DNA of 24,000 nucleotides from Crocosphaera sp. UHCC 0190 (GTDB taxonomy: Bacteria > Cyanobacteriota > Cyanobacteriia > Cyanobacteriales > Microcystaceae), in NCBI RefSeq assembly GCF_034932065.1, contig NZ_JAYGHP010000004.1:155585-179584 (forward strand), in the 5' to 3' direction. The notes below the pieces were generated by a model, which worked only from the letters and a program-made list of their open reading frames with translations, searched no databases and was not told the origin of the DNA. Below are positions 1,591 to 22,428 of the stretch, piece by piece; position 1 is the stretch's first letter, and each line of letters begins with the position of its first letter. The translations under genes and the position numbers were made by a program.

Positions 1591-2526
1591 ATGATGAAAA
1601 ATTATTCTCATGACTTCCTGAAGTTTATTATCTTGCTAATCACCGTTTTATTTTGTGTCGGATTTTCAGCACAAGCTAATTCAACTTTGTCTCAAAAGTC
1701 TCAAGATTCTCAACTATTTTATCAAGGCATTGCTCATCTTAACCAGGAAAATTATCAACAAGCGATCTGGCATTTTACACAAGTCATTAATGAAGATTAT
1801 CCCTTAATAGGGGCGGCTTATACCAATCGCTGTTTAGCCCATTTACAATTAAATAATAATCAGTTAGCTAAACAAGATTGTACTCAAGCTTTAGCCTTAA
1901 ATTCCGAGAATATAGAAGCCTATTTGAATCAGGGAATGGCTAATTATCGCTTAGGTAATTTTTCAGACTCTTTAGCTGCTTATCAAGAAGTGATTAAACG
2001 AGATAAAACTGATTATCGTGCTTATTATAATCAAGGCTTAGTTTATTTTCAATTAAAGGACTATGATCGTGCTTTAGAGGGTTATGAGAAGGCTTTACAA
2101 TCTCACCAATTAAAAGAAGTATCTTCTAAAGCAATGATTTATTATGATCGGGGGTTAGTCCATTTACAATTAGGGGATTTTTCCTCTGCGATCGCTGATT
2201 TAACTCATGCCATTATTTTAGATAAATACAATGATAGAGCTTATTACAATCGAGCTTATGCCTATCAAAAAAGTAAAAATTATCGATTAGCATTTAGAGA
2301 TTTTAATGAAGTCATCAAATTAAACCCTCAGTCAACATCAGCTTATGTTAACCGAGGAATTGTAGAGCAGAATTTAGGATTTCAAACATCGGCTTTTCAG
2401 GATTTTCGGATAGCCATTGAACAATATAAACAACAGGAGAAAATTATGGCTTATGAGGAAACCCTGAGTTTAATTCAGCAGCTAAAACGGATTATTGCTC
2501 AATCTCATGAAACCCTAATTGCTTAA
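1591..2526 (+). CDS. TPR-repeat protein with N-terminal signal peptide or membrane anchor
   Basis: Track ORF 1564-2526. The ATG at 1591 is preferred because GAGG (1582-1585) lies 5 nt upstream. The N-terminus MMKNYSHDFLKFIILLITVLFCVGFSAQA looks like a signal peptide. Repeated 34-residue TPR signatures follow (AYYNQGLVYFQLKDYDRALEGYEKAL, AYYNRAYAYQKSKNYRLAFRDFNEVIKLNP, AYVNRGIVEQNLG...). Confidence 0.8.
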   Translation: MMKNYSHDFLKFIILLITVLFCVGFSAQANSTLSQKSQDSQLFYQGIAHLNQENYQQAIWHFTQVINEDYPLIGAAYTNRCLAHLQLNNNQLAKQDCTQALALNSENIEAYLNQGMANYRLGNFSDSLAAYQEVIKRDKTDYRAYYNQGLVYFQLKDYDRALEGYEKALQSHQLKEVSSKAMIYYDRGLVHLQLGDFSSAIADLTHAIILDKYNDRAYYNRAYAYQKSKNYRLAFRDFNEVIKLNPQSTSAYVNRGIVEQNLGFQTSAFQDFRIAIEQYKQQEKIMAYEETLSLIQQLKRIIAQSHETLIA

Positions 2527-2535
2527 ATTAAGTCA

Positions 2536-2550
2536 GTGGGGATTGCCCAC
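2536..2550. terminator. short GC-rich hairpin at a convergent gene junction
   Basis: GTGGG-gattg-CCCAC, followed by CCTAC. It lies between the stop of the TPR gene (2526, +) and the stop of the 159-aa ORF (2571, -). The 3' end (CCCACCCTAC) resembles the ACCCCTAC end of the 28-bp palindromes at 4452 and 12887. Confidence 0.3.
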
Positions 2551-2570
2551 CCTACAGATATTATTTAACA

Positions 2571-3050
2571 TTATAAATTATAGGTTTCTAGCCACTTTTT
2601 AGCTTGTTCTCTAATTATGTTAGAAATATTTTCTTTTGTTGCATTTGGCCAATAAAACTGGACATCATCATATCTGAAATCATCTAAAGCATTCCAAAGC
2701 AAATAAAAATCAAAAATTTCTTCTAAATAGTCCCAATTTAAACATAATTGATGAATTTCTCCAATCCCTTGAGCCTGAGAAATCTTGCCGTTGATAAAGT
2801 CTTTTAAAAGGACGGCAGTGTAAGCAAGAACTGCTGCTTTCCCTTCAAGTTTATAAACATTAAATTCTTGTAGAGTTTTATCGACATAATAAGTAATTTC
2901 TTGACGATTATTGACATGGGTTAATCCTGCTAAAATACGAAGACTAGGACTATCATAATCCATCATTAATAAAGAAACTGCCCAATCAATAATGTCTTCT
3001 AGAGGGACGCATAATGCACTAAATACTTGGGCTTTTGTAAAATCAGACAT
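2571..3050 (-). CDS. hypothetical protein (159 aa), no recognisable domain
   Basis: Clean ORF from the track with an ATG start. It is acidic and Trp/Tyr/Leu-rich and looks helical (…DYLEEIFDFYLLWNALDDFRYDDVQFYWPNATKEN…). No TM segment or signal peptide. It is divergent from the Uma2 gene. Confidence 0.5.
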   Translation of the reverse strand: MSDFTKAQVFSALCVPLEDIIDWAVSLLMMDYDSPSLRILAGLTHVNNRQEITYYVDKTLQEFNVYKLEGKAAVLAYTAVLLKDFINGKISQAQGIGEIHQLCLNWDYLEEIFDFYLLWNALDDFRYDDVQFYWPNATKENISNIIREQAKKWLETYNL

Positions 3051-3199
3051 TTTTTTACAATAAATTTATCCATCTCTATTCTCATCATAAAAGATTAACT
3101 GAGTTTAACTTAAATTATTTAAGAAACGTAAAAATCTTGAATAGTTAAGCAAATTAATGTCATAATAGTTATATATAGTTAAATAATCTATCAATTAAA

Positions 3200-3772
3200 A
3201 TGTCCCTACAAACCACAGAAAAACTATACAGTTTTGAAGACTATTGTACCTATGATGACGGCACAGACAACCGCTATGAATTAGTTGATGGAAAATTAGA
3301 GCTAATGAACCCACCTACCTTTCGACATTTACTGATTGCTGACTTTATTCAAGATATGTTTAAAGCAGAAATTAAGCGTCTTGAATTGCCTTGGTTATGT
3401 TTTAAAGAAGCAGGAATTAGAACAGGATGGCGTAAATCTCGATTACCAGATATTTATGTAATTCCTATCGAACAAATTAGGGAATATCTCGATCAATCTG
3501 CCATTGCTCAAACTTCACCTTTATTAGTAGTAGAAATTGTAAGTCCTGATTCAATTAAACGGGATTATCGTTATAAACGCTCAGAATATGCTGCCCTAGA
3601 AATACCTGAATATTGGATTATTGATCCCTTAGAAAATAAAATATCTATTCTTTACTTGGATGAGGGACTCTACGAAGAAACTAACTTAACCAATGACCAA
3701 AAAATTCAATCAAAAATTTTTACTGAATTATCTCTAACAGTTCAAAAAGTCTTAGAAGCTGGAAACTATTAA
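3200..3772 (+). CDS. Uma2-family (DUF820) restriction-endonuclease-fold protein
   Basis: Typical Uma2 hallmarks: YELVDGKLELMNPPTFRH near the N-terminus, PDIYVIP, LVVEIVSPDS…DYRYKRSEYAALEIPEYWIIDP (PD-(D/E)xK-like core). Length of 190 aa is typical of this highly paralogous cyanobacterial family. Confidence 0.85.
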   Translation: MSLQTTEKLYSFEDYCTYDDGTDNRYELVDGKLELMNPPTFRHLLIADFIQDMFKAEIKRLELPWLCFKEAGIRTGWRKSRLPDIYVIPIEQIREYLDQSAIAQTSPLLVVEIVSPDSIKRDYRYKRSEYAALEIPEYWIIDPLENKISILYLDEGLYEETNLTNDQKIQSKIFTELSLTVQKVLEAGNY

Positions 3773-3796
3773 TTATCAAATCATTGAGAAAATATT

Positions 3797-4423
3797 ATGA
3801 TTAAAGTTGCTGATATTATGACCCAAGATGTTGTTAAAATTCGCAGTTCAGCAACCATCTTACAGGCTGTTAAATTAATGCGAGAAAAGGTAATCCGTAC
3901 CTTAATTGTAGATCGTCGTTATCCTGAAGATGCCTATGGAATTATTACTGAAACTGATATTATCAATGAAGTTATAGCTTATGGAAAAGATCCACAAAAA
4001 ATCAGAGTTTATGAAATTATGACTAAACCCTGTATTGTCGTTAATCCTAACTTAGACATTAATTATGTAGCCAGACTCTTTAAAAATACAGGAATTCGTT
4101 GCGCTCCCGTCATAAAAGATGAACTTATAGGCATTATTTCTGTCACCGATATTTTAAGTAAAAGTGATTTTTTAGATAACCCTAGAGAAAAAATATTAAT
4201 CCAAGAAATTGAACAAAAAACAAGAGAAGCACGTCATATTTGTCAAGAATTTTCTCATGATTCTCAAAGATGTCAAGAAGCCTGGCTTTTAGTAGAAGAA
4301 TTGCAAGCAGAAGCGGCATTTAAAGAGGGTAAAAAGCCTAACAAAACTGCCTTACAAGAATATTTAGAAGAATATCCTGAAGCCACAGAAGCATTATCCT
4401 TAGATAATTGGTGTAGTGGCTAA
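3797..4423 (+). CDS. CBS-domain pair fused to a C-terminal CP12 domain (CBS-CP12 fusion protein)
   Basis: Residues ~1-125 show two CBS motifs (MTQDVVKI…GIITETDII; MTKPCIVVNP…GIISVTDIL). Residues ~149-208 match CP12: a Cys pair (CQEFSHDSQRC) followed by the CP12 core AWLLVEELQAEAAFK, then LQEYLEEYPEATEALSLD, which aligns with the canonical YCxDNPxxxEC tail. Confidence 0.85.
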   Translation: MIKVADIMTQDVVKIRSSATILQAVKLMREKVIRTLIVDRRYPEDAYGIITETDIINEVIAYGKDPQKIRVYEIMTKPCIVVNPNLDINYVARLFKNTGIRCAPVIKDELIGIISVTDILSKSDFLDNPREKILIQEIEQKTREARHICQEFSHDSQRCQEAWLLVEELQAEAAFKEGKKPNKTALQEYLEEYPEATEALSLDNWCSG

Positions 4424-4451
4424 AAAGTCCTAGGGGCAAACTAGAAAAATG

Positions 4452-4479
4452 GTAGGGGTGAATGGCCGTTGACCCCTAC
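4452..4479. repeat. 28-bp GC-rich palindromic element (copy 1, imperfect); likely bidirectional terminator
   Basis: GTAGGGGTGAATGGCCGTTGACCCCTAC. It lies between the convergent stops of CBS-CP12 (4423) and pstB (4504). It differs at 2 positions from the perfect palindrome at 12887-12914. Confidence 0.6.
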
Positions 4480-4503
4480 TATAAGGTAATTAGTAACCTA
4501 AAA

Positions 4504-5301
4504 TTAACCTATTCTACCGCTAATATAATCTTTCGTTCTATCTTGAGAAGGACTATCAAAAATCTCCTCAGTTAGTCCAGATTCTACCATTTCTCCTAAA
4601 TACATAAACGCAATATAATCAGAAATTCTCGCCGCTTGCTGCATACTGTGAGTGACAATAATCATAGTCACTTTTTGTTGCAGTCCACTCATTAATTGTT
4701 CAATACTATTAGTGGCAATAGGATCAAGTGCTGATGTCGGTTCATCAAAAAGAACAATTTCCGGTTCTGTTACTAATGCTCTGGCAATACACAACCTTTG
4801 TTGTTGTCCCCCAGATAACTCATAAGCAGAGGTATTTAGGCGATCTTTTACCTCATCCCATAAAGCAGCATCTTGTAATGCTTTTTCTACCTTTTCATCA
4901 AGAATACTGCGATTTCTTTCACCCCTTACCCGCAGTCCATAGACAACATTTTCATAAATTGACTTAGGAAAAGGATTAGGTTTTTGAAAGACCATACTGA
5001 CTCGCATTCTCACTTCAATCGGGTCAACAGTAGGGCTTAAAATATTTAAAGAATCAACTCTAATTTCCCCATCATAACGATTTCCTGGATAGAGATCATG
5101 TAAGCGATTAAAACATCGGAGTAAGGTTGTTTTTCCGCAACCAGATGGGCCAATTAAAGCAGTAATTTTTTGCTCAGGTATAGTTAAATTAACATTTTTA
5201 ATGGCATGGAAATCACCATAATAAAAATTAAAATTTTTGACTTCTGCTTTAGAATTAACGCTCTCTAAATTAGCTGAATTATTAGAAAAATGCTCTACCA
5301 T
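4504..5301 (-). CDS. pstB: phosphate ABC transporter ATP-binding protein PstB
   Basis: Walker [10 protein letters not shown], signature [15 protein letters not shown], Walker [13 protein letters not shown], and the PstB-typical N-terminal FYYG and C-terminal [10 protein letters not shown]. It is the last gene of the pstSCAB order. Its ATG overlaps the pstA stop (ATGGTAG). Confidence 0.95.
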
Positions 5302-6257
5302 TTGATTCCTTGACGTAGACGATAACGTAAATAAATTGCTAACCCATTAATGCCAAGAGTCATCATTAATAAAACTGTTCCCGCAGCAGCAGCATTGATT
5401 TGAAACTCTTGTTCAGGACGAGATACCCAAGCAAACATTTGAATGGGTAATACAGTAAATGGAGCATTTAACCAAGCAAAAAACTGTTGAAAGTTAAAGA
5501 AAGGAAAGGTATTTTGCAGAGGAATAAAAGGGAAAATGCTATCAAAAGGTGACTCCGGTAAAAAGGCAATAAATGTTAATGCACCAATGGTAATAACCGG
5601 AGCAGTTTCGCCAATTGCGCGGGCTAATCCGATGATAATTCCTGTTAAAATACTTCCTAGAGAATAGGGTAAAATATGATCCCAGACTGTTTGCCATTTC
5701 GTTGCTCCTACGGCAAAAGCTGCCTCTCTTAAGCTAGTAGGAATTGCCCGAATTGCCTCACGGGTAGTAACAATAACAACAGGTAAAATTAGCAAAGCTA
5801 AGGTTAATCCTGCGGTTAAAATACTCTGACCCAATTCCAAACGATAAACAAATAATCCTAATGCTAATAAACCGTAAATAATGGAAGGAATACCAGCTAA
5901 GTTAGTGACATTAATTTCAATGATGGCAGCTAACCAATTTTTGCGGGCATATTCTTCTAAATAAATACCAGATGCTAACCCGATAGGAATTGCAGCTACC
6001 GCAGTTACGAACATTACTAAACTACTTCCTACCCAAGCAGAAAGAATGCCCGCATTTTCCGCTTTACGGCTCGGAAAAGAGGTAAAAAATTGAGGGGTTA
6101 AACGGGGAATTCCTTCAATGACAATTTGTAAAATTAACCCCAATAAAATGAAGGTTGCCACAAAAATTATCAATAACCCAAAAATAGCAAATAAACTATC
6201 AATGAGTTGACGACGGGAGATTTCAGAACGAATTTGAGTTAACTTTGCTTGAGACAT
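5295..6257 (-). CDS. pstA: phosphate ABC transporter permease PstA
   Basis: Polytopic membrane protein with the ABC permease EAA-like loop ([21 protein letters not shown]). It sits between pstC and pstB. Confidence 0.9.
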
Positions 6258-6261
6258 ACAA

Positions 6262-7191
6262 TTAATAAATTTCTCGATAATGTTTAGCCAAAAAATAACC
6301 GATTATATTTAACAGTAACGTCATCAAGACTAAGGTTAATCCAGCAGCAAAAATTGTTTGATATTCTAGGGTTCCATAGGGTAAATCCCCTAAACTTACT
6401 TGTACAATATAAGCAGTAATTGTTGCACCTTGTTCGAGAGGATTTAGGGTAAATTGAGGTAATAAACCTGCAGCAATCGCCACAATCATTGTTTCACCAA
6501 CTGCACGGGAAGCACCTAAAATATAAGCGGCTCCAATACCAGAAATAGCGGCGGGAAAAACCACTTTTAAGGATGTTTGAAGACGGGTTGCACCCATTGC
6601 ATAAGAACCTTCTCGTAAAAAAGTTGGAACTGCTCGCATGGCATCTTCACTAATTGAACTTATTAGGGGAAGAATCATTAATCCCATCACTAATCCACCA
6701 CTTAACATATTAAATGTAGGCAAATCTGCTAATAGTTTTTGTAGCAAAGGAGTGACAACTAATAAGGCAAAATAGCCGTAAACCACGGTGGGAATAGATG
6801 CTAATAATTCTAAACTTGGCTTAACCCATTCTCTTAATTTAGGTGAGGCAAATTCACTCAAATAAATCGCCACAATAGTCCCGCAAGGAATTGCCAGTAA
6901 AAGGGCGACTGTTGAGGTGACTAAGGTGCCTGATAGTAATGGCAAAATGCCATAATGTTTGTCACTAAATAGAGGAGTCCATTCCGTATCGGTGAGAAAC
7001 TGAATGATGGGAACTTGTTGGAAAAAATGCCAAGATTCTGTTACTAAGATATCCAGAATGCCAAAGGTAGTAGCAACAGAAGAAAAAGCTGCGATAAAAA
7101 GGGCAAACTCTATAACTTTCTCCCACAAATTGCGGATAAAACGAGAAGAAATCTGCCCTTGATGAATTTCCTTAGACAAAGGTTGTGTCAT
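6262..7191 (-). CDS. pstC: phosphate ABC transporter permease PstC
   Basis: Polytopic membrane protein with the EAA-like loop (REGSYAMGATRLQTSLKVVFPAA). It lies immediately downstream of pstS. Confidence 0.9.
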   Translation of the reverse strand: MTQPLSKEIHQGQISSRFIRNLWEKVIEFALFIAAFSSVATTFGILDILVTESWHFFQQVPIIQFLTDTEWTPLFSDKHYGILPLLSGTLVTSTVALLLAIPCGTIVAIYLSEFASPKLREWVKPSLELLASIPTVVYGYFALLVVTPLLQKLLADLPTFNMLSGGLVMGLMILPLISSISEDAMRAVPTFLREGSYAMGATRLQTSLKVVFPAAISGIGAAYILGASRAVGETMIVAIAAGLLPQFTLNPLEQGATITAYIVQVSLGDLPYGTLEYQTIFAAGLTLVLMTLLLNIIGYFLAKHYREIY

Positions 7192-7194
7192 AAT

Positions 7195-8133
7195 TTAGCG
7201 AATAGCTTGAGTAAACTTCTGCTTATGAGCTTGATAGTCGGTGCGAGGAATAGAACGCACTTCTTTGACTAATTTAGGCGCATTGTCTAAATAGTATTGT
7301 ACGAATTCTTTAACAGCAGGTTTGCTTTTTGCAGCTTCAAGATTAACGTAAATAAAAATAGGACGACCTAAAGGTTTATAAGTCCCATCACTGACTGTTT
7401 TAGATGAAGGAGCAACCCCATCAATCTTTAACGCTTTGAGTTTATTTTCGTTTTCTTCGTAGTAAGTAAACCCAAAATACGCCAAGGCTTTGTTATCATT
7501 AGCAACCCCTTGAACTAACACATTATCATCTTCACTAGGAGTATAATCAGTGCGACTGTCTCCCGATTTACCCATAATTTCTTCGGTGAAATAATCAAAG
7601 GTTCCTGAGTCAGCACCAGGGCCATAAAGCTTTAAAGGCGCATCAGGCCAACTGGAATTTACCTGCTTCCATTTCATGATTTTTTTTGTAGCTGCGGGTT
7701 CCCACATCTTTTTAAGTTCCGCCGTTGTAATATTAGTTAAAGGGTTATCTTTTTTGACTACAACGGTAATTGCGTCATAAGCAACAGGAATTTCTAAATA
7801 CTTAACTCCTGCTGCTTTACACATTTCCTTCTCTTTATCTTTGATGGGTCGAGAAGCATTAGAAATGTCGGTCTTAACAGCATTATTATCAGAACAGAAT
7901 TTCTTAAACCCGCCCCCTGTTCCAGAGATACCTACTGTTACTTGAACAGCACCCCGTTTTTTGTTTTGAAACTCCTCAGCGACAGCTTCAGTAATGGGAT
8001 AAACCGTACTCGAACCATCAATTTTAATGACTGCACGACCTTGAGAATTAACCGGAATATTGGTCAAACTAACTAAGGCTAAACCTAGGGCAAATGCACT
8101 AGCGAAAAGCCAACGATTGATTCTAAAGTTCAT
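7195..8133 (-). CDS. pstS: phosphate-binding periplasmic protein, PstS family
   Basis: Signal peptide [25 protein letters not shown]-like-2 motifs are present ([42 protein letters not shown]). It is the first gene of the pst operon. Confidence 0.9.
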
Positions 8134-8264
8134 TGCTTGACTATCCTATGCTTTGAGATTGAACTTATTGGCTAGATGTAAGCCGGATCTATTATTTCAA
8201 ATAAACTGTCTAATAGGGTTAATAATAAGTAAATAAACGATTAAACTTTAGCAAATAAATATTC

Positions 8265-8294
8265 ATTAATTGTTTCTTAATACGTTGTTAATTT
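8265..8294. promoter_or_regulatory. candidate Pho boxes (SphR/PhoB-type): three TTAA-core octamers phased at 11 bp
   Basis: TTAA cores at 8266, 8277 and 8288, exactly 11 bp apart. The octamers are ATTAATTG, CTTAATAC and GTTAATTT, each separated by 3 bp. They match 6-7 of 8 positions of the cyanobacterial Pho-box octamer PyTTAAPyPy(T/A). Two further TTAA cores lie 22 bp apart at 8219 and 8241. The site is ~130-160 bp upstream of the pstS ATG. Confidence 0.4.
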
Positions 8295-8361
8295 TTACCT
8301 GAAAAATTTTCTCCGTTGAGGGCAACAAACGGGTAAATTTATGACTATCATCTAAAAGGGA

Positions 8362-9339
8362 ATGTTTACCCTAAAAACGTTGTACCTCATCCTGTTGAGA
8401 ACATTTATATTGAGTCAGATGAAATTGATTAAGCAGACGAAAAATTGGCTTTTAAGCTTGCGGTTCTTATTTCGGCCTATGTTCGTTATTTCTCTGGTTT
8501 TGCATGGCTGGCTGCTTAATTTACCCCTTCCTTCTGCTTCTAAACCAGAGTCTAAGAAACCGGAAGAAATTAAGGAGAAAGTACAAATTACTCGGTTAAT
8601 ACCCCCTTCTTCTCAAAGCACTTCTCAAACTAAACCAACTCCCACCCCTGTCAAGTCTCCTCCTAGAATTAAACCGACACCTAGTCTTCCTAAAATTACA
8701 GCACCACGTCAACAAATCCCACAAATTTCATCACCTTCTCCTCAGCGGAAAATAACCCCTAAGCCTCAAAATTCTTCCCCTAAAAGTTCCTCACAACCGC
8801 CAAAAAAAGAAGCTAAACCCACCCCAACCCCGAAAGCATCTCCGAGTAGTCAACCCAGCCCAAAACCTTCCCCTTCCCAACCTTTACCAGAGGCAAAAAT
8901 CGATAATTCTGCCGTTGCTAATGAAGCAGGTTCTAGTTTACTTGAAGAATTGCGTCCCAGAATTTTAAAACGCTTAGAACAAAGTACCAATGATTTAGCG
9001 GAAATGGAAAAATACCTAGATAGTTTGCCCATACAATTTATTAAAGATGAACAAATTTCTTTCTTTTTAACGGAACAAGAGCAACTAAAATCAGGGGTAT
9101 TAGGCTCATTAAATATTCCACAAACTAATCCTACTAATGCTTTTTTTGACTATATAGAACCCGTCGTGAAAAATGAACTAGGATTTGAAATTACTCAATT
9201 AGAACCTGACTATGGAAACTCCATATTATATCAAGCAAAAAATTCATCAAACGTAGTTTTTTATATGAGTATTGTAAAATTAAAAGGAAGTGGTGCTTTC
9301 TTAGTTTTATGGCCAGATAACCCTAATAAACCTCAATAA
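8362..9339 (+). CDS. TonB-like membrane-anchored proline-rich protein with a non-canonical C-terminal domain
   Basis: The N-terminal hydrophobic helix FVISLVLHGWLL carries an SxxxH(G) motif like E. coli TonB (LLSVCIHGAVV). A ~110-residue Pro/Ser/Lys-rich spacer follows (KPTPTPVKSPPRIKPTP…KPTPTPKASPSSQPSPKPSPSQP). The ~150-aa C-terminal domain lacks the usual TonB YP motif. The start is uncertain: in-frame ATGs occur at 8362, 8419 and 8479. Confidence 0.5.
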   Translation: MFTLKTLYLILLRTFILSQMKLIKQTKNWLLSLRFLFRPMFVISLVLHGWLLNLPLPSASKPESKKPEEIKEKVQITRLIPPSSQSTSQTKPTPTPVKSPPRIKPTPSLPKITAPRQQIPQISSPSPQRKITPKPQNSSPKSSSQPPKKEAKPTPTPKASPSSQPSPKPSPSQPLPEAKIDNSAVANEAGSSLLEELRPRILKRLEQSTNDLAEMEKYLDSLPIQFIKDEQISFFLTEQEQLKSGVLGSLNIPQTNPTNAFFDYIEPVVKNELGFEITQLEPDYGNSILYQAKNSSNVVFYMSIVKLKGSGAFLVLWPDNPNKPQ

Positions 9340-9454
9340 TAAAATATTACTTAAGGTTTAAGGCGATCGCTATCAATACAATGAAAAAAAACAAAATCTG
9401 AATTGCTGGTCAGGGATAGCAGTATAAAGAATTATTAAATTGTAGCGATCACAC

Positions 9455-9706
9455 TTAACAAGTATGTTCTAGCATATATTTTTCTAGTACGGCATTAATT
9501 AAAGTCTGATATTCTTGGGAAGATTGCTGTTTATACCAAGCAACAACCGAGGGATCAAGCTGTAGAGTTACAGGAACTTTTATCGGAGGATTAACAGTAG
9601 CTTCTTGCCAAAATTTGGCATCAGTAGCAGGTATATCTGAATAATCTATATCAGAATCTTTTATCTGACCAAGGATCTTTAATTGTTCCTCTCTCGACAT
9701 ACTCAT
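9455..9706 (-). CDS. brnA: BrnA-family antitoxin
   Basis: MSMSREEQLK…DYSDIPATDAKFWQEA…VPVTLQLDPSVVAWYKQQSSQEYQTLINAVLEKYMLEH matches the BrnA pattern (…lRLD.dvl.wfK..g.gYQt.iN..Lr.y). The track ORF starts at 9730. The ATG at 9706 is preferred because AAAGGAGGA lies 6 nt upstream. Confidence 0.8.
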   Translation of the reverse strand: MSMSREEQLKILGQIKDSDIDYSDIPATDAKFWQEATVNPPIKVPVTLQLDPSVVAWYKQQSSQEYQTLINAVLEKYMLEHTC

Positions 9707-9962
9707 AATAAATCCTCCTTTCCTCTGCATTAGCGCGTCTTGTAGATATAAGCCGTATTTTCTGCCCTCGTAGAGTATACACCGTAACTAAGATAAATTC
9801 TCCTAAAAGTCCCAAAGCGATTAATCTTTCTTCGCCGTAGTCTCTGCGATTATCAGGTTTTGAGATCCAGACTCCTGAAAAGATTTCCTTAGCAAAATTA
9901 AAGTCGATCCCGTGTTTTTCGATATTGATGTTGTTCTTTTGGTCATCCCACTCGAACTCCAT
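9651..9962 (-). CDS. brnT: BrnT-family toxin (DUF497 ribonuclease)
   Basis: MEFEWDDQKNNINIEKHGIDFNFAKEIF…IRLISTRRANAEERRIYYE is the classic BrnT signature (F.WD..K...N..KHG..F..A, IRIISAR.A…E…Y). It lies directly upstream of brnA. A TATAAT on the minus strand (complement of 9992-9997) sits ~30 nt upstream of the ATG. Confidence 0.85.
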   Translation of the reverse strand: MEFEWDDQKNNINIEKHGIDFNFAKEIFSGVWISKPDNRRDYGEERLIALGLLGEFILVTVYTLRGQKIRLISTRRANAEERRIYYEYVERGTIKDPWSDKRF

Positions 9963-16147: not shown

Positions 16148-16849
16148 ATGCGTAAAGCCTTAATTATCGTCAATGCTGAAGTAAAAGCAGAAGGTACAAT
16201 CTATTTGGCCTCCCCTGCAACGGAAAAAATGGTGATGGCCCTGGAAGCGGCGATCGCGGCTGATTCCCCCAAGACTCAAGTTGAGGTGATGGCGGCCGCT
16301 ACTTTGTGGTCAAAAAACTTCAAAAGCCAAAAACCTGATGCTAATTTGCTCTATTGTCCCCTAACCATTGATATTCCTGCTTGGTTGCCCTTTCCAGGAC
16401 AAAAAATTTATCAAGATTGTAAGGACGTTAAGGCCAGACGGCAATGGGTTGAAAAAAAACTGGGCCACAAAACCACTATTGGCGATACTTGGTTAGGGGA
16501 TTTATGGTTACCTGTCGCTTTAACCCCAACGGAATTAGTCTATGGGGAAGTGATTGGGGAAGGAGCATTTCCTAATTCTTATGAGCAACCGATCAACCTT
16601 GATCGGGGTTTGCGTCGTCCTTTGTACGATTTAGCCCAAGGATTATTGGAATCCCTAGATGCGCCGCCTTCTGTTTACCTGCTGCAATTTCGGTTAAAAG
16701 GTCAGACCATTGTTTTTGACCGTTTATGGCCGTTTCCGGCTGCCCCCACTATCGCCTCTGTAAGATCTCAGCAACCTAATTTATTTACCTGCTATTGGCG
16801 TTGTTTAACCCATCAACCCATTGCTAATCTGACAGGCACTCCTGTCTAA
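16148..16849 (+). CDS. hypothetical protein (233 aa), no recognisable domain
   Basis: ATG-initiated ORF with coding-like composition. It is on the same strand as sasA, 87 nt downstream. No motifs recognised. Confidence 0.55.
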   Translation: MRKALIIVNAEVKAEGTIYLASPATEKMVMALEAAIAADSPKTQVEVMAAATLWSKNFKSQKPDANLLYCPLTIDIPAWLPFPGQKIYQDCKDVKARRQWVEKKLGHKTTIGDTWLGDLWLPVALTPTELVYGEVIGEGAFPNSYEQPINLDRGLRRPLYDLAQGLLESLDAPPSVYLLQFRLKGQTIVFDRLWPFPAAPTIASVRSQQPNLFTCYWRCLTHQPIANLTGTPV

Positions 16850-16969: not shown

Positions 16970-19420
16970 ATGTTAATTAAATGGAGTGAGTCGGTTAAAG
17001 ATGGGGTTGAAGCGAGTAAACAGATCTTTGAATTAGCCAGAGTTCTCAAAGAAAATAAGGATAACGAAACTTTTAAAGAAGTCGTTTCTCAGGTTTCTTC
17101 TCTGCTGGATATTTTAAATGCTCCCTTGGGTCAAGTGGCGGCGGCTTCTTTACCTTTTGTTTCCATTGCCACTGGTATTATAACTTATATTGTTGAGAAA
17201 AATCAACAAGAACTAACCCTAGAACAAAGTATTGGATTAGTGGCACAAACCGCCTATTTAGAAAGTATTCAAAGTTTTTTTAGAAGTCATTTTGACTTGA
17301 CACAAACCTTAAGTAAAGATCCCGCATTAGCAGCCACATCTCAAAAAATTAAACAGTTAGGTCAAACCCTCAATGTCGAACGAGAAGAGGCTGAACAAGC
17401 CTTAGTTTGTTTTCATGAATCAAAGTTAGCTAAACAATTTAATGACTTACTACAAACAAGATTAGAAGAATCAGGTATTTCTGAAAATAAAGCTAAAATT
17501 ATTGTTGAAAGGATTTCTCGAAAAACCCATCGTTACCTTAAACCAAACTTTGCTAAGATCAAAGATAAAATACACAAATTATCTCCTATTTATGGCAAAA
17601 ATTGGCAACAAGAACTAACTTTTAATTATGGCATAGAAAAATATCTTAAAGAGAAAATTGACCAAGAGCCTTTAGGGACAATTTTTGCTGAATCCTTTAG
17701 TTTTCATGATCTTTATGTAACCTTAAAAGTTCAAGGTGTAACTAAGGGAATCATTGATGACAATGCCCCCTATGAAAATATCGAAACTTGGGCAATTAAT
17801 CATTTATTGAATCCTCATCAAGTGGGCAAAGTTTTGTTTATTCAGGGGCAGTCAGGAGGAGGAAAGAGCGTCTTTTGTCGAATATTTGCGGGAAGAATCA
17901 GACAATATTTACATCCCATTTATACCCCGATTTTAATTCGATTACGAGATATTAAAACTATTGAGAATAACTTTGAAAAAACCTTGGCATCTGCTATTGG
18001 TTGGGAATTTGCTACAGGTGATCACAATTGGTTAACTGATAAAAATACTCGCTTTCTTTTTATTTTAGATGGTCTTGACGAACTAATTTTAGAATCAGGT
18101 AAAAAAGATAGTTTACAAGTTTTTTTAGATCAGGTTGCCCATTTCCAACAACAATGTCAAGAAAATCCCGAACAAGGTCATCGTATTATTATAACAGGAA
18201 GACCTTTATCCCTTTACGGAATTGACGGGTTAATGCCCAATAATTTAGAATGGGTTAATTTAGCATTAATGGATGATGAAACCCAAAGCAAATGGTTAGA
18301 AAAATGGGAGCAAATAGTTGGTCTAGAAGAAGCACAAGAATTTCGTCAATTTTTATTTAATCAGCGTTGTCCTCAAACTATTAAAAAATTATCAAGAGAA
18401 CCCTTGTTGTTGTATTTATTAGGAGCAATGCACCGAGATAAACAGGTGAATTTAGACAATTTTATTAGAGGAGAAGAAGAACAAGTCAAGGTCAATATTT
18501 ATCAAAAAGCCATTGCTTGGATATTAACAAAACAACGGAACAAAAATCTTAACGAACAACTTTCTTCCTTAGAAATTGAAGATTTACATAGTGTTTTAGC
18601 GGAAGCAGGATTTTGTGTTTTACAATCAGGAAAAGAAAATGCTTTAATCCGAACAATTGAAGATCGCTTATTAGAAAAAGGTGATGAAAGTGCCAAAGAA
18701 TTAATTGAAAAAGCGAGACAAAGTAAAGAAAAAAATTCCCTTAAAAATGCTTTAGCTGTTTTTCATTTTAAAAAATCAACCGATGTTAATAATCCTATAG
18801 AATTCTTTCATAAGAGTTTTGGAGAATTTTTGGCATCAGAATGTTTAGTAGAAAGTATGGAAGAATGGACACAAAAAGGAGGTAGTAGTAAAAAGACTTA
18901 TTTTGTTAAAGATAGAGAATTTAGATGGCAAGTTTATGACTTATTTGGAGGAGGATATTTAAACCCTGAAGTGATGAGTTATTTGATGCCATTATTAAGA
19001 CAAAGAAACATCAATTGGGTGACATTGTATGAAAGATTATATGAGTTTTATTTAAGTTGGAGTGACGGAGAATTTATCGAAGCACTGGATAGTTCGGATG
19101 ATATGTTACCCTTGAAAAAAGCCAGGCAATTACAGAAATATGATTTAAAAAGAGGCCAGAGACAGGTGGATATTTGTACGGGATTAAATGTTTTAATTTT
19201 ACTCTTAGAAATTAATCGCTATGCACAAAGTAATGAAATATTAAAAGATAAGATTAGTTTTTATCCCTGGGGAAATCCAGATATTAAAACGGAATTTGAT
19301 GGTGATCGCTTACCAAGAATTATGGGTTATAGTGAGTGTTTAGGTAAGGATAAATTTAGGATTATTCTGGGCAAGTTTTTAGAAAATGTAAACTTCCAAG
19401 AGATTAATATAATGAATTAG
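16970..19420 (+). CDS. NACHT-domain STAND NTPase (NLR-like), with unknown N-terminal module and non-repeat C-terminus
   Basis: Walker A VLFIQGQSGGGKSVF (GQSGGGKS = nt 17846-17869). Walker B RFLFILDGLDEL (nt ~18053-18088). Other NACHT landmarks are IIITGRP, REPLLLYLLG and FFHKSFGEFLASE. The first ~285 aa and last ~200 aa match nothing I recognise. Confidence 0.85.
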   Translation: MLIKWSESVKDGVEASKQIFELARVLKENKDNETFKEVVSQVSSLLDILNAPLGQVAAASLPFVSIATGIITYIVEKNQQELTLEQSIGLVAQTAYLESIQSFFRSHFDLTQTLSKDPALAATSQKIKQLGQTLNVEREEAEQALVCFHESKLAKQFNDLLQTRLEESGISENKAKIIVERISRKTHRYLKPNFAKIKDKIHKLSPIYGKNWQQELTFNYGIEKYLKEKIDQEPLGTIFAESFSFHDLYVTLKVQGVTKGIIDDNAPYENIETWAINHLLNPHQVGKVLFIQGQSGGGKSVFCRIFAGRIRQYLHPIYTPILIRLRDIKTIENNFEKTLASAIGWEFATGDHNWLTDKNTRFLFILDGLDELILESGKKDSLQVFLDQVAHFQQQCQENPEQGHRIIITGRPLSLYGIDGLMPNNLEWVNLALMDDETQSKWLEKWEQIVGLEEAQEFRQFLFNQRCPQTIKKLSREPLLLYLLGAMHRDKQVNLDNFIRGEEEQVKVNIYQKAIAWILTKQRNKNLNEQLSSLEIEDLHSVLAEAGFCVLQSGKENALIRTIEDRLLEKGDESAKELIEKARQSKEKNSLKNALAVFHFKKSTDVNNPIEFFHKSFGEFLASECLVESMEEWTQKGGSSKKTYFVKDREFRWQVYDLFGGGYLNPEVMSYLMPLLRQRNINWVTLYERLYEFYLSWSDGEFIEALDSSDDMLPLKKARQLQKYDLKRGQRQVDICTGLNVLILLLEINRYAQSNEILKDKISFYPWGNPDIKTEFDGDRLPRIMGYSECLGKDKFRIILGKFLENVNFQEINIMN

Positions 19421-19425
19421 AAAAG

Positions 19426-19449
19426 GATTAATTCTCAGAATAATTAATC
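19426..19449. terminator. AT-rich hairpin in the 34-bp NACHT/M48 convergent spacer
   Basis: GATTAATT-ctcagaat-AATTAATC is an 8-bp stem. On the minus strand it is followed by CTTTTC, which overlaps the NACHT stop codon. Confidence 0.3.
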
Positions 19450-19454
19450 TAAAA

Positions 19455-21473
19455 TCAGTGAAAGATTAAGGGTAAGATAAGACCTATAATAATAATGATT
19501 GAACCCGTCACTAAAGAACCAAATCGAGGATAGCTGTTGACAGTTTTTTTGCCAGTTGATAACTCAATTAAATCTAGCCAAGGAGAAACACCCCTGCGAA
19601 ACCATCCCACCGAACCGACAGAATTATCAATTAAATTTTTAACTTGAGTTGTACCAAACAAGAAATTACCAATGGCACCAAAACGAGAAGCATAACGGAT
19701 AAAAATCATTCCCGTTCTATCTTGTAATTTCAAGTCAGAACCAAAGGCATAACCTGCATCACCGCGACCAATTAATTTACCTTTGAGTCGGACAGGTTTA
19801 CCCCTGACAGGACTACTGTAGGGATCACACATTAAAGTAAACATATCTGAGTCAGGAGACTTTTGAAAATCAGGATAGATAAAGATAGTTTTTAGGATTA
19901 ATCCTGAGCCAAAACCAAAGGTCAGAAAACTGAATAAAAGGACTGTGTTTTTGGTATTATTTATCATAATCATGCCAATAATAAATCCTAATAATCCCCC
20001 AATAATATGACTATTTCCTATAATTAATTCCAAGAAAAAAGTCTTTAAAAGTTTATTTTTATTGAGTTTATTTCCTTCTTTAATAATGCTGGCTATATTA
20101 AACTGAGAATCAATGCCCATTTGCTCAGCATAAGTACATAATGCTTGAATTCTTTTTCCCGTTAAGGGGTGAGTAGAATTTAACTCAGTTAATTTAGCCC
20201 AAGGATTAAATAAATCCCAAATAAATACTTTTCCTAACCGTTGAGAATCCGAAGTAATTCGATAAACTGTTCCCGCAGATGCTGCTGCTTTTGCATCACA
20301 AATTCCTAAAGCGCGGGTTCCTTGCATTAATTGACTGGGTTCTGGATTTTTGCTGTATTCTTCTGTAATACCATAAGCAATTTTAATCAATGCCCGTGAC
20401 AGTCCATTAGGGTTTCCAGTCATTTCTGCGGCAAAATGATCTGCATAATATTCCCTGGTTCTCGACAAATAAAGCATTAAATAAGTGCCAATCACATAGA
20501 AAATATAAGCAGCAACTGAGGCTAATTTAACAGCATACTCTAACTTATTATCACCATCTCCTCCATTCCCTAATTTCCTAGCAAATAAATAAATTAAATA
20601 AGTAATTTGTACTAAGGTAGCACCCAAGGTCATAATAGCAAAATCCCAATGAACAATATGCCCTAATTCATGAGCATAAACTGCGGCAATTTCATCATCA
20701 TCGAGATAAGTAAATAATCCTTGACTCACAACTACACGGGCATTACTAGGAAAGGAACCATAGGTGAATGCAGTGGGGTTTTGATCGTCAATAATTCCTA
20801 AACGGGGATGAGATAATTGTCTCTCTCGACAGATACGCAAAATCACTTCTGCTGCTTCGGGACTTTGACGTTTAATTTCTGCTAAATTGACCCAACGGGT
20901 TTTGTAAAGCCATTGTTGGGTAAAATCCATGATCAAGGGAGAAAGGAAAAATGTGACCCCATTAAACACTAAAGTAACAGCAATCGAGATTATTAATCCC
21001 AGACCAGGGTTTTTGTTATCGACAATAAAAAATAGACCAAGACACAATGATAAAACCATCCCCAACAGTAGAATAATGGTAAAACCAGAGGCGAATTTCA
21101 GACTATCAGCGATTTTAGGCATCATTAACCTAATTCCTGTCTGATTACCTCTTCCTGCTATCTGATAAAATTGGGGAGAATTGTCCTCTTGACGATTAGT
21201 AATAGTATCCTTACTAACCATACACAGAAAACTTTGGGCCCAATCTCGAATTTCTGTATTAGAATGTTTAACCAAAGTTTGGGTTAAGGCGATCGCTTTC
21301 TCTTGTTGACCATTTCCTCGATAGGCCCTGGCTAAAGCGATTAACCCTTGGATATAAAAGGGTGATTGCCGATCTTCATAATTCTGGCAAAAATTAGCGA
21401 GTAGGGCAACTGCTTCGGAATATTGTTGTTTTTGCAGGGCCTGCTGTCCGTCATTCAGTAAATTTAGTGACAT
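19455..21473 (-). CDS. M48-family (HtpX/Ste24-like) zinc metalloprotease with N-terminal TPR-like domain and long C-terminal extension
   Basis: HELGHIVHWD zinc site, with downstream REYYADHFAAEMTG (third ligand Glu) and THPLTGKRIQAL. The N-terminal ~100 aa are TPR-like (QQYSEAVALLANFCQNY…GLIALARAYRGNGQQEKAIAL). Several TM helices are predicted. An extra ~190-aa C-terminal region has 2-3 TM helices and a soluble segment. The ATG at 21473 (MSLNLL…) is preferred over the track start at 21554. Confidence 0.85.
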   Translation of the reverse strand: MSLNLLNDGQQALQKQQYSEAVALLANFCQNYEDRQSPFYIQGLIALARAYRGNGQQEKAIALTQTLVKHSNTEIRDWAQSFLCMVSKDTITNRQEDNSPQFYQIAGRGNQTGIRLMMPKIADSLKFASGFTIILLLGMVLSLCLGLFFIVDNKNPGLGLIISIAVTLVFNGVTFFLSPLIMDFTQQWLYKTRWVNLAEIKRQSPEAAEVILRICRERQLSHPRLGIIDDQNPTAFTYGSFPSNARVVVSQGLFTYLDDDEIAAVYAHELGHIVHWDFAIMTLGATLVQITYLIYLFARKLGNGGDGDNKLEYAVKLASVAAYIFYVIGTYLMLYLSRTREYYADHFAAEMTGNPNGLSRALIKIAYGITEEYSKNPEPSQLMQGTRALGICDAKAAASAGTVYRITSDSQRLGKVFIWDLFNPWAKLTELNSTHPLTGKRIQALCTYAEQMGIDSQFNIASIIKEGNKLNKNKLLKTFFLELIIGNSHIIGGLLGFIIGMIMINNTKNTVLLFSFLTFGFGSGLILKTIFIYPDFQKSPDSDMFTLMCDPYSSPVRGKPVRLKGKLIGRGDAGYAFGSDLKLQDRTGMIFIRYASRFGAIGNFLFGTTQVKNLIDNSVGSVGWFRRGVSPWLDLIELSTGKKTVNSYPRFGSLVTGSIIIIIGLILPLIFH

Positions 21474-21580
21474 AGGTTGTCTCTGGGATTGAAAAGAGAG
21501 GCATCTATCCTTAGAAGTACCCAATGTTTCCAGAAAAATTAACACCCTTAACAAAACAACAAGAAATCAATGCTGACATC

Positions 21581-22428
21581 TTATTGAAGTAGAGCAATTT
21601 TTATCCATTTGAGTTCTTTTTCACCTAAAGGCAATTTTAAGCAGAGGCTTGATATAATTGTCTTTTGTAAATAGACCATCAAAATTGATAAACTAGCAAC
21701 TACCCAGAATTCGGGTATAACTTGAGGATTAATGGCAAATATTCTTACCAGAGGCTTCCAATAATATAAAAAGAAAATATGCCAGAGATAAATCCATAAA
21801 GATGAACTACCTAGATAAATAAACCATTGTTCTAGATGGGTTGTTTTGAGAAATTTAGAATGATTTTTACTGACATAAGTGGCCATTACATAAAAAATAA
21901 TTGTCATCAAAATACTGTAAGAAATATAATAAAGTGTCGGGGGATATTTGTATTTTTGAGTTAAGACAAAAGAGCCAGTATCTTGACTATAATTTATCGC
22001 TAGAGTCACAAAGATTACAGCAAATCCTAACGCTATTGTTAAGAGTTTCTTCTGAGTAATTTGAGTGATGACAATTCCTAAAGCGAATAAAAGACTATAG
22101 GGAATAAGTAACATAATTATTTGAGACATCAACAAACTTACAAAAATTCTTTGATACAAAAAATCGCTAAAACTTGATATTTGAGTGAAAGACAAACTAT
22201 TAAACCAATAGACGAAGTCATCCAGAATAAAGCACCAGAAACTATCACCATTAAAGGAACATCAAAGTTTCTCAGTTGATAAATAAAAACCTCAGTTTTT
22301 GGCAAAGTATGAGCGAGTATAATACAAAATATGCCAAGGGTTTTTAGAATATCGAACTCTAAGGAACGAGTCCGAATAACCCTTGGGTTCAACTCATTAA
22401 AATGAGCATTAGAATTAGGTAAGGTCAT
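21581..22428 (-). pseudogene. acyltransferase family 3 (membrane O-acyltransferase) gene interrupted by one frameshift
   Basis: Track ORFs 22138-22428 and 21581-22195 are consecutive, overlapping and in different frames. The first has the family N-terminus (RTRSLEFDILKTLGIFCIILAHT…FDVPLMVIVSGALF). The second is a polytopic continuation (FLYQRIF…LLIPYSLLF…WHIFFLYYW) that starts only at a TTG preceded by TAA TAG. A single-base indel in the A/T-rich stretch near 22196-22212 (ggtttaatagtttgtc on the coding strand) would fuse them. Confidence 0.6.

Follow-up and report, generated by a model that had tools for sequence, protein, structure and literature searches.

Bacterial proteins with a NACHT domain form a superfamily that has experimentally antiphage members, and pentapeptide repeats are listed as one of its repeat-type sensor classes; the NNH class of N-terminal domains ('NACHT N-terminal helical domain') has received a name but no function (Kibby et al., bioRxiv 10.1101/2022.07.19.500537). 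Here, we describe a gene of this superfamily in a stretch of 24,000 nucleotides from Crocosphaera sp. UHCC 0190 (contig NZ_JAYGHP010000004.1, positions 155,585 to 179,584), which we call the window. The gene encodes a protein of 816 amino acids (aa) that, judging from its domain matches, is almost certainly a member of a family combining NNH3 and NACHT domains. We consider it probable that the protein belongs to the cyanobacterial NNH3-NACHT-pentapeptide-repeat family and has secondarily lost its sensor; the family is a lineage of STAND NTPases resembling NOD-like receptors (NLRs) within the bacterial NACHT superfamily. Its existing annotation is that of a NACHT protein. By descent, the gene is part of a catalogued family, of which it is an architecturally incomplete member, as it has no repeat array. 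The protein is neither an Avs protein nor a pentapeptide-repeat protein nor a membrane protein.

When comparing the protein to described systems, the closest are the NNH3-NACHT-pentapeptide proteins (PF22735, PF05729 and PF00805) of Limnoraphis robusta, Trichodesmium erythraeum, Okeania, Lyngbya sp. PCC 8106 and Pseudanabaena yagii. The homology extends over all 816 aa, and the NNH3 domain, the NACHT motifs, the C-terminal helical region and the first two repeat units, in register, are shared. In contrast, the Crocosphaera protein has no array, no cap and no leader of ~16 aa, it sits on a fast-evolving branch, and its host is unicellular whereas most members come from filamentous genera. With the bNACHT proteins (Kibby et al.) it has the superfamily in common, as well as the logic of an N-terminal effector or adaptor, a NACHT switch and a C-terminal sensor. 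Its short C-terminus superficially resembles the clade-14 bNACHT01 type; however, it matches no PADLOC model, and the short C-terminus is the product of a recent array deletion and not a SNaCT-type domain. Animal NLRs (NOD2, NLRP3 and NLRC4) give the best structural matches across the nucleotide-binding domain, helical domain 1 (HD1), winged-helix domain (WHD) and helical domain 2 (HD2), with the same logic of Walker A/B and sensor-1, whereas the sequence identity is 12-16%, NNH3 stands in place of a CARD or PYD effector, and the ancestral sensor is a pentapeptide beta-helix instead of leucine-rich repeats (LRRs). Lastly, Avs proteins are likewise STAND NTPases with a three-part logic, and Avs3 is a weak fold match; however, they belong to another STAND clade, and the Crocosphaera protein has neither a TPR-like sensor nor a nuclease or protease effector and matches no Avs model of PADLOC.

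The loss of the repeat array is seen when the protein is placed in its family. We found 563 homologues. The ortholog in Crocosphaera sp. XPORK-15E has 813 aa and is 87% identical, and the 118 closest proteins beyond it are 43-64% identical over ~99% of the query (97-100%) and have lengths of 900-1280 aa. These closest relatives almost all consist of NNH3, NACHT and pentapeptide repeats, and among 44 divergent long members all have NNH3, 41 have NACHT and 36 have pentapeptide repeats. The family occurs mostly in filamentous cyanobacteria (Okeania, Trichodesmium, Limnoraphis, Lyngbya, Oscillatoria and Pseudanabaena). In the alignment, the C-terminus of the Crocosphaera protein (...VNFQEINIMN) reads FLEN-VNFQE-INIMN, in register with the first ANLSx-ANLSx units of its relatives, which run on through long arrays to a conserved cap (IxWxxxTxW...GL..A.NVPE.L). 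After the equivalent of residue 800, the tail comprises 16 aa here compared to 77-463 aa in 29 of the 32 loci with complete 3' ends; the other three end within the NACHT module (L004, frameshifted; L021, which stops 4 bp from the contig end; and L039). Only five of the 120 closest proteins have short tails, namely the Crocosphaera pair, one partial protein, the frameshifted P0051 from L004 and one protein of 883 aa. A truncation relative to repeat-bearing cyanobacterial relatives had been suspected in an earlier reading that was made without database searches (the sequence-only reading), and both the alignment and the tail lengths agree with it.

A neighbour-joining tree, rooted on the most divergent family members, groups the Crocosphaera pair with P0003 (872 aa, with six repeat units and the cap), nested inside repeat-bearing clades. 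Because the short pair is nested among repeat-bearing clades, the tree indicates that the sensor array was lost secondarily, before UHCC 0190 and XPORK-15E diverged. When relatives' C-termini were compared to the downstream DNA by tblastn, nothing was found past 19417, nor in the 3' end of the neighbouring M48 protease gene, which rules out pentapeptide remnants after the stop codon or within the end of that gene. A genome scan with single-protein patterns recovered the XPORK-15E locus and no other close relative. P0051 (821 aa, from a Limnoraphis-like genome; L004:8001-11040) has a frameshift, and pentapeptide remnants are found in two small downstream open reading frames (ORFs). It is thus an independently disrupted family member, compared to a clean deletion in Crocosphaera.

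The 816-aa product has the same sequence (100% identity) as an NCBI entry named 'NACHT domain-containing protein' [Crocosphaera sp. UHCC 0190]. All motifs quoted in the sequence-only reading were found again in the ORF: Walker A GQSGGGKS (aa 293-300, 17846-17869) with the catalytic lysine K299, Walker B LFILDGLDE (aa 363-371, 18056-18082), the sensor-1 strand IIITGRP (aa 406-412, 18185-18205) with the arginine R411, REPLLLYLL (aa 476-484, 18395-18421) and the conserved FFHKSFGEFLA (aa 612-622, 18803-18835), which includes H614. Across the family, K299, D367, G368, D370 and R411 are invariant or nearly invariant. The description as a stand-alone NACHT/STAND NTPase without a repeat sensor also stands, as the motifs are intact and Pfam gives no WD40, TPR, LRR or pentapeptide match; PF00805, PF13599 and PF13576 were among the pentapeptide models scanned against the protein, with no match. 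The Pfam NACHT model itself is marginal (29.3 bits compared to a gathering cutoff of 26.7, E=9.3e-7), and its match is limited to aa 288-384.

The predicted structure extends the NACHT assignment. The full-length AlphaFold2 model has a pLDDT of 87.6 and a pTM of 0.87, and a Foldseek search of the PDB returned NOD2 (5irm) as the best match at E=4.3e-9, followed by NLRP3 (7alv) and NLRC4 (4kxf), to ~1e-7. The top 40 matches are all NLRs (NOD2, NLRP3, NLRC4 and NLRP1/2/7/9/14), with alignments that span 550-700 columns and template-modelling (TM) scores of 0.47-0.50 relative to the NLRP3 NACHT crystals; Avs3 came only at E=5.9e-4 in the same search. The sequence profile of the family found NLRP3 weakly (E=0.007) and otherwise only pentapeptide proteins, which correspond to the part that is missing here. 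The sequence-only reading had treated the C-terminal ~200 aa as a module of no known kind. This region is conserved in the family, where it leads into the repeat array (aa ~648-804), and it is most likely the WHD/HD2 part of the predicted NACHT module and not a separate domain, because the lengths of the NLR alignments imply that it is included, the residue ranges of these alignments not being reported.

Pfam has a curated domain for the N-terminal module, which had been called undescribed: NNH3, 'NACHT N-terminal Helical domain 3', is matched over its full length (PF22735, E=1.4e-43, 149.9 bits, profile positions 5-213 of 213). In the searchable literature the term NNH3 is used in no paper, and the NNH3-NACHT-pentapeptide architecture is not described in the papers of Kaur et al. 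from 2020 and 2021. The AlphaFold2 model of aa 1-285 is all-helical (pLDDT 80, pTM 0.78). With this model, Foldseek found nothing significant in the PDB (E<=1e-3; best E=0.2, TM score ~0.16) and no fold match among viral proteins (BFVD) at E<=1e-3. When the N-terminal 285 aa were compared to 1.84 billion representatives, only 201 clusters were found (about 200 at 50% identity), and the domain is always at the extreme N-terminus. We considered the motif CFHES (aa 147-151), of which the cysteine and the histidine are conserved in close relatives. The consensus of divergent members loses first the cysteine and then the histidine, and we thus dismissed it as a catalytic motif or active site. An arginine cluster (R181/R184/R188) is retained among the divergent members. 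NNH3 has no conserved catalytic constellation, and conservation thus favours a role as an adaptor or as a non-enzymatic effector that is activated by proximity. The Crocosphaera pair and P0003 do not have the ~16-residue N-terminal leader (consensus LWxxLNTDI) of most family members, and no in-frame start upstream of 16970 is available in the window.

Within NNH3, the segment AAASLPFVSIATGIITYIV (aa 57-75) is the most hydrophobic 19-mer of the protein (Kyte-Doolittle mean 1.78); across the family, P62 never varies and F63 hardly does. The segment had been proposed to be a membrane-inserting or buried helix. We found that its summed Hessa insertion energy is +2.9 kcal/mol, that the family median is +5.0 and that none of 119 relatives falls below 0. 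The positive energy in every family member argues against a constitutive transmembrane anchor in NNH3, and we rejected this reading. In the models, helices at aa 53-58 and 63-77 lie within the helical bundle at a pLDDT of 78-88, and the hydrophobic character suggests that aa 57-75 form a buried core helix. Looking for a pore-forming or membrane-inserting effector, we observed neither a transmembrane-like segment nor fold likeness to known pore-forming helical bundles. The segment may be a latent, releasable membrane-active helix, which no test that we ran supports.

To the strain pair we owe an estimate of selection. The loci of UHCC 0190 and XPORK-15E are collinear over 17 kb with 92-96% nucleotide identity. 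For the NACHT gene, dN is 0.068 and dS is 0.30, and their ratio omega is 0.224, with 126.7 nonsynonymous differences at 1959 sites compared to 119.3 synonymous differences at 480 sites (Fisher odds ratio 0.21, p=3e-27). The 813 codons are free of internal indels, and neither strain has a stop codon within the 2.4 kb. Each domain is constrained, with omega between 0.17 and 0.33, and the 16-residue tail is loosest (omega 0.42, with indels relative to XPORK-15E). The residues K299, D367/D370/E371, R411 and H614 are kept in the Crocosphaera lineage. The low omega, its significance and the lack of internal indels thus point to purifying selection on the gene and argue strongly against neutral decay, and we judge it likely that the gene is still functional.

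The comparison to the family leaves more room for doubt, and several further observations also weigh against the reading that we prefer. The selection estimate comes from one pair of strains, and the omega of 0.22 compares to 0.03-0.12 for most neighbouring genes and 0.19 for the M48 gene. Furthermore, the Crocosphaera lineage deviates at 16-23 of the 174 columns for which conservation among the other members reaches 95% or more (family median 1, 90th percentile 5.3), and the deviations include the Walker A substitution P295S (family GxPGRGKS), Y599H, R625C and C767W. Such extra deviations and the raised omega both fit relaxed constraint after sensor loss, with room for a degraded or changed function. 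With regard to defence, for which the gene had been put forward as a candidate, the protein had zero matches in PADLOC-DB (v2) at E<=0.1, and three full-length relatives had none at E<=0.01 except a stray mad8 (E=0.0044). Since the full-length relatives also have no meaningful match, the negative result reflects the database and not the truncation. NNH3 has no assigned function, and, as far as sequence can tell, a NACHT protein without its sensor may be active, inactive or autoactive. The surroundings of the gene in the window are of the housekeeping kind and not a defence island. In the literature, we found no published experimental test of any family member. The survey of bacterial NACHT proteins later appeared in Cell (2023).

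We also weighed whether the gene died after the array deletion, that is, whether it is an intact-looking pseudogene heading for loss. Truncation is very rare in the family, and the one short form studied in detail (L004) is a frameshifted pseudogene, with L021 and L039 also ending prematurely, which would fit such a decaying relic. The 16-23 substitutions at highly conserved columns, where the median is 1, an omega that is 2-7 times that of the housekeeping neighbours, and the degenerating C-terminal tail could be explained in the same way. However, dN/dS is far under 1 in a gene where dS of 0.30 has produced no stop codon or internal indel in either strain, every domain remains constrained, and the Walker A lysine, the Walker B acidic residues, the sensor-1 arginine and the WHD histidine are all kept. 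We thus regard a relic as unlikely and prefer the sensor-less family member that, from its substitution pattern, is probably functional but re-tuned or partly relaxed, and fast-evolving. That the extra substitutions near the P-loop are compensatory is speculation.

The genomic contexts of the relatives vary and include Ycf54/RodZ, XisH/XisI with an M50B protease (which flanks the Limnoraphis homologue) and Uma2 with DUF433. Among the 20 family loci that extend 1.5 kb or more downstream of the gene, we detected four in which the start of an AAA_15/AAA_21 ATPase gene overlaps or abuts the stop codon of the NACHT gene (L009:9846-11884, L010:9333-11374, L038:2037-3618 and L025:7086-7256). A DUF4276 gene is next in three of these four, and L025 has only a short ATPase fragment. 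In L009 and L010, the pair matches the PADLOC candidate system HEC-01 (HEC-01A at E~1e-50; HEC-01B weakly, at 1e-5 to 1e-6). The combination of an NNH3-NACHT-pentapeptide gene, the ATPase and DUF4276 may be a three-gene unit, of which we found no description in the literature. Full-length family members are also present on six cyanobacterial plasmids, including the conjugative pREB8 of Acaryochloris, and on a Nostoc plasmid the family gene lies between CHAT and WD40-STAND genes. A search for phage-encoded homologues found none. The HEC-01-like adjacency and the plasmid carriage point to conflict-type biology for the family. Judging from the superfamily and the contexts of the relatives, a role in conflicts with phages or mobile elements would be the likeliest biology for the family, with a chance that seems evenly balanced.

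For the family, a mechanism can be proposed by analogy with NLR/STAND proteins. Nucleotide binding and exchange at K299/D367 would lead to oligomerisation of the NACHT module, and oligomerisation would cluster the N-terminal NNH3 domains, which would serve as an adaptor or as an effector without enzymatic activity. The pentapeptide beta-helix of full-length relatives would act both as a ligand sensor and as an autoinhibitory lid. The Crocosphaera protein has no array and would no longer sense that ligand. A re-tuned switch is probable, which, because the array was lost, would respond to another input or partner or would be weakly or constitutively active. A precedent for the effect of sensor loss is NLRC4, in which removal of the LRRs relieves autoinhibition and activates the protein.

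Taken further, the protein would be a selected and re-purposed NLR: it could be a helper, or a switch activated in trans, in a pair with a full-length paralogue or some other sensor; alternatively, it could be autoactive and kept in check by a partner. NNH3 would then be a new non-enzymatic fold for death or signalling, and the wider family would cooperate with the HEC-01-like ATPase and DUF4276. We give this extension a small chance. If it is true, the lineage carries a natural 'delta-sensor' allele for dissecting how the cyanobacterial NLR family fires.

The features of the locus and the two genes that flank it are listed in Table 1.

Table 1. Coordinates in the window of the sensor-less NACHT gene, its predicted parts and its immediate neighbours
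Feature	Position	Strand	Remarks
Complete gene, 816-aa NNH3-NACHT protein, sensor-less	16970..19420	+	ATG start; TAG stop included
NNH3 domain, all-helical, putative effector/adaptor (aa 36-245)	17075..17704	+	Pfam PF22735
Moderately hydrophobic conserved segment AAASLPFVSIATGIITYIV (aa 57-75), inside NNH3	17138..17194	+	Includes helix aa 63-77
NACHT nucleotide-binding domain (aa ~286-433)	17825..18268	+	Pfam NACHT with Walker A/B and sensor-1
HD1 and winged-helix domain, predicted (aa ~436-640)	18275..18889	+	AlphaFold2 secondary structure, Foldseek; boundaries approximate
HD2-like C-terminal helical region, predicted (aa ~648-804)	18911..19381	+	Family-conserved, helices at pLDDT ~90; boundaries approximate
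Two vestigial pentapeptide units VNFQE-INIMN (aa 807-816)	19388..19417	+	Aligned to ANLSx-ANLSx of relatives
AT-rich spacer to the M48 stop	19421..19454		34 bp; no room for repeat remnants
orf233, conserved cyanobacterial hypothetical (context)	16148..16849	+	3' side is the synteny breakpoint
TPR and M48/HtpX-like membrane metalloprotease (context)	19455..21554	-	Pfam, NCBIfam

We considered base composition as a possible sign of foreign origin. The NACHT gene is indeed more AT-rich than sasA, with a GC content of 0.326 compared to 0.435 for sasA and 0.456 for orf233, but its low GC content is not special in the window, where the mean is 0.367 and eight of 22 ORFs have a GC content of 0.343 or less. 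The outlier is instead the GC-rich block of GH57, sasA and orf233 (0.43-0.46). The GC content at third codon positions (0.226) and the synonymous codon usage of the gene are typical of the window. Similarly, the reported gap in HIP1 sites was found, with no GCGATCGC between 16258 and 21288; however, a longer HIP1-free gap lies at 2196-9362 in the same window. Because GC content, third-position GC and codon usage are window-typical and a longer HIP1 gap is found nearby, there is no compositional evidence of foreign origin, and we rejected horizontal transfer as judged by composition. The window has 12 HIP1 sites (GCGATCGC), unevenly spaced, compared to 0.06 expected by chance, which fits a cyanobacterial chromosome.

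In order, the window encodes a TPR protein, Uma2, CBS-CP12, the PstSCAB phosphate transporter, BrnT, ExbB/ExbD, Pth, PSRP-3, the GH57 branching enzyme, SasA, orf233, the NACHT protein, the M48 protease, a split acyltransferase and an ABC ATPase. The NACHT gene starts 120 bp downstream of the sasA-orf233 pair, with terminator-like hairpins between orf233 and the gene, and the 34 bp between its stop codon and that of the convergent M48 gene were found as reported. Its two neighbours have no match in PADLOC-DB. The block Pth-PSRP3-GH57-SasA-orf233 is kept in C. subtropica ATCC 51142 and in two metagenome-assembled genomes (MAGs), in which orf233 is followed by a mechanosensitive channel gene (in two) or a glycosyltransferase gene (in the third), and neither NACHT nor M48 is found there. 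Since the flank 3' of orf233 differs among these genomes, the gene is not strictly syntenic, and strict synteny, which would have spoken against the sequence-only reading, is thus no argument; the gene lies at a synteny breakpoint and is accessory rather than core.

This position outside conserved synteny is one of the points that speak for a reading close to the one first given to the gene, namely an active single-gene antiphage NLR with a novel membrane-inserting effector that was horizontally acquired as defence-island cargo. Protection against phage is documented for members of the NACHT superfamily (Kibby et al.), no fold relative of NNH3 is known, and the conserved segment within NNH3 is hydrophobic. 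However, the N-terminal module is a catalogued domain and the insertion energy of the segment is positive throughout the family. Neither composition nor codon usage departs from that of the host window, the window contains no defence neighbours and the protein has no PADLOC match, and the array that would be expected to recognise phage is absent. We thus consider an antiphage NLR of this kind quite improbable.

A further alternative is that the gene is a housekeeping signalling component tied to SasA and circadian output or to the M48 membrane protease. Its location just downstream of sasA-orf233 and convergent with the M48 gene would suit such a role, and a membrane metalloprotease (M50B) also flanks the Limnoraphis homologue. 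The sasA-orf233 pair is, however, kept in ATCC 51142 and the two MAGs without NACHT or M48 downstream, and the hairpins part orf233 from the NACHT gene; a functional tie to sasA/orf233 was dismissed as the pair is conserved without the NACHT gene. Five other family contexts have no linkage to M48, M50 or SasA, and a tie to the M48/M50 metalloprotease was dismissed as the adjacency does not recur in other family contexts. A housekeeping role of this kind is highly improbable, and the preferred reading remains the sensor-less member of an accessory, NLR-like family.

Among the neighbouring genes, orf233 has 579 homologues, is widely conserved in cyanobacteria and directly follows sasA in four of four genomes checked; no family was assigned to it by Pfam, NCBIfam or PADLOC, and it may be an uncharacterised SasA-linked gene. 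In the M48 protein, TPR-like repeats at the N-terminus are joined to a membrane M48 domain, and its evolution is relatively fast (omega 0.19, 89% aa identity to XPORK-15E). As called, its ORF starts with TTG at 21554 and encodes 699 aa, whereas the XPORK-15E ortholog begins with an ATG and has 672 aa; the gene in the window thus probably starts at 21473, which would likewise give 672 aa. The Acyl_transf_3 gene (21581-22428, minus strand) is split into ORFs of 204 aa and 96 aa, whereas its XPORK-15E ortholog (L002:14610-15782) is one intact ORF of 390 aa. In a blastn comparison ~300 bp are missing in the window near 22206-22217, and the gene is probably a deletion pseudogene in UHCC 0190. Uma2 (a putative restriction endonuclease fold; 3200-3772, plus strand) and the BrnT toxin (9651-9962, minus strand) are isolated genes 7-13 kb from the NACHT gene. 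Uma2 is also found just upstream of the NACHT gene in three unrelated loci (L008, L009 and L010), which may reflect the abundance of Uma2 in cyanobacteria. Adjoining Uma2 is a CBS-CBS-CP12 fusion of 208 aa (3797-4423, plus strand) that appears to be an ordinary cyanobacterial CP12 variant.

The finding is modest, as it concerns a domain-loss derivative of a catalogued and annotated NLR-like family, and truncated NLRs are unsurprising. It corrects the first reading of the locus, in that the N-terminal domain is named as NNH3, the C-terminal part is most likely NACHT module, and no mark of foreign origin or of a defence island is present. Furthermore, it draws attention to a fairly narrow and partly plasmid-borne family, in which a HEC-01-like candidate defence module directly follows the NACHT gene in about one-fifth of the sampled loci. 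A naturally occurring sensor deletion that appears to be maintained by selection offers a comparator for testing the pentapeptide beta-helix as sensor and lid. Together, the apparently selected sensor deletion and the recurrent linkage to HEC-01 provide concrete experimental handles on this cyanobacterial family.

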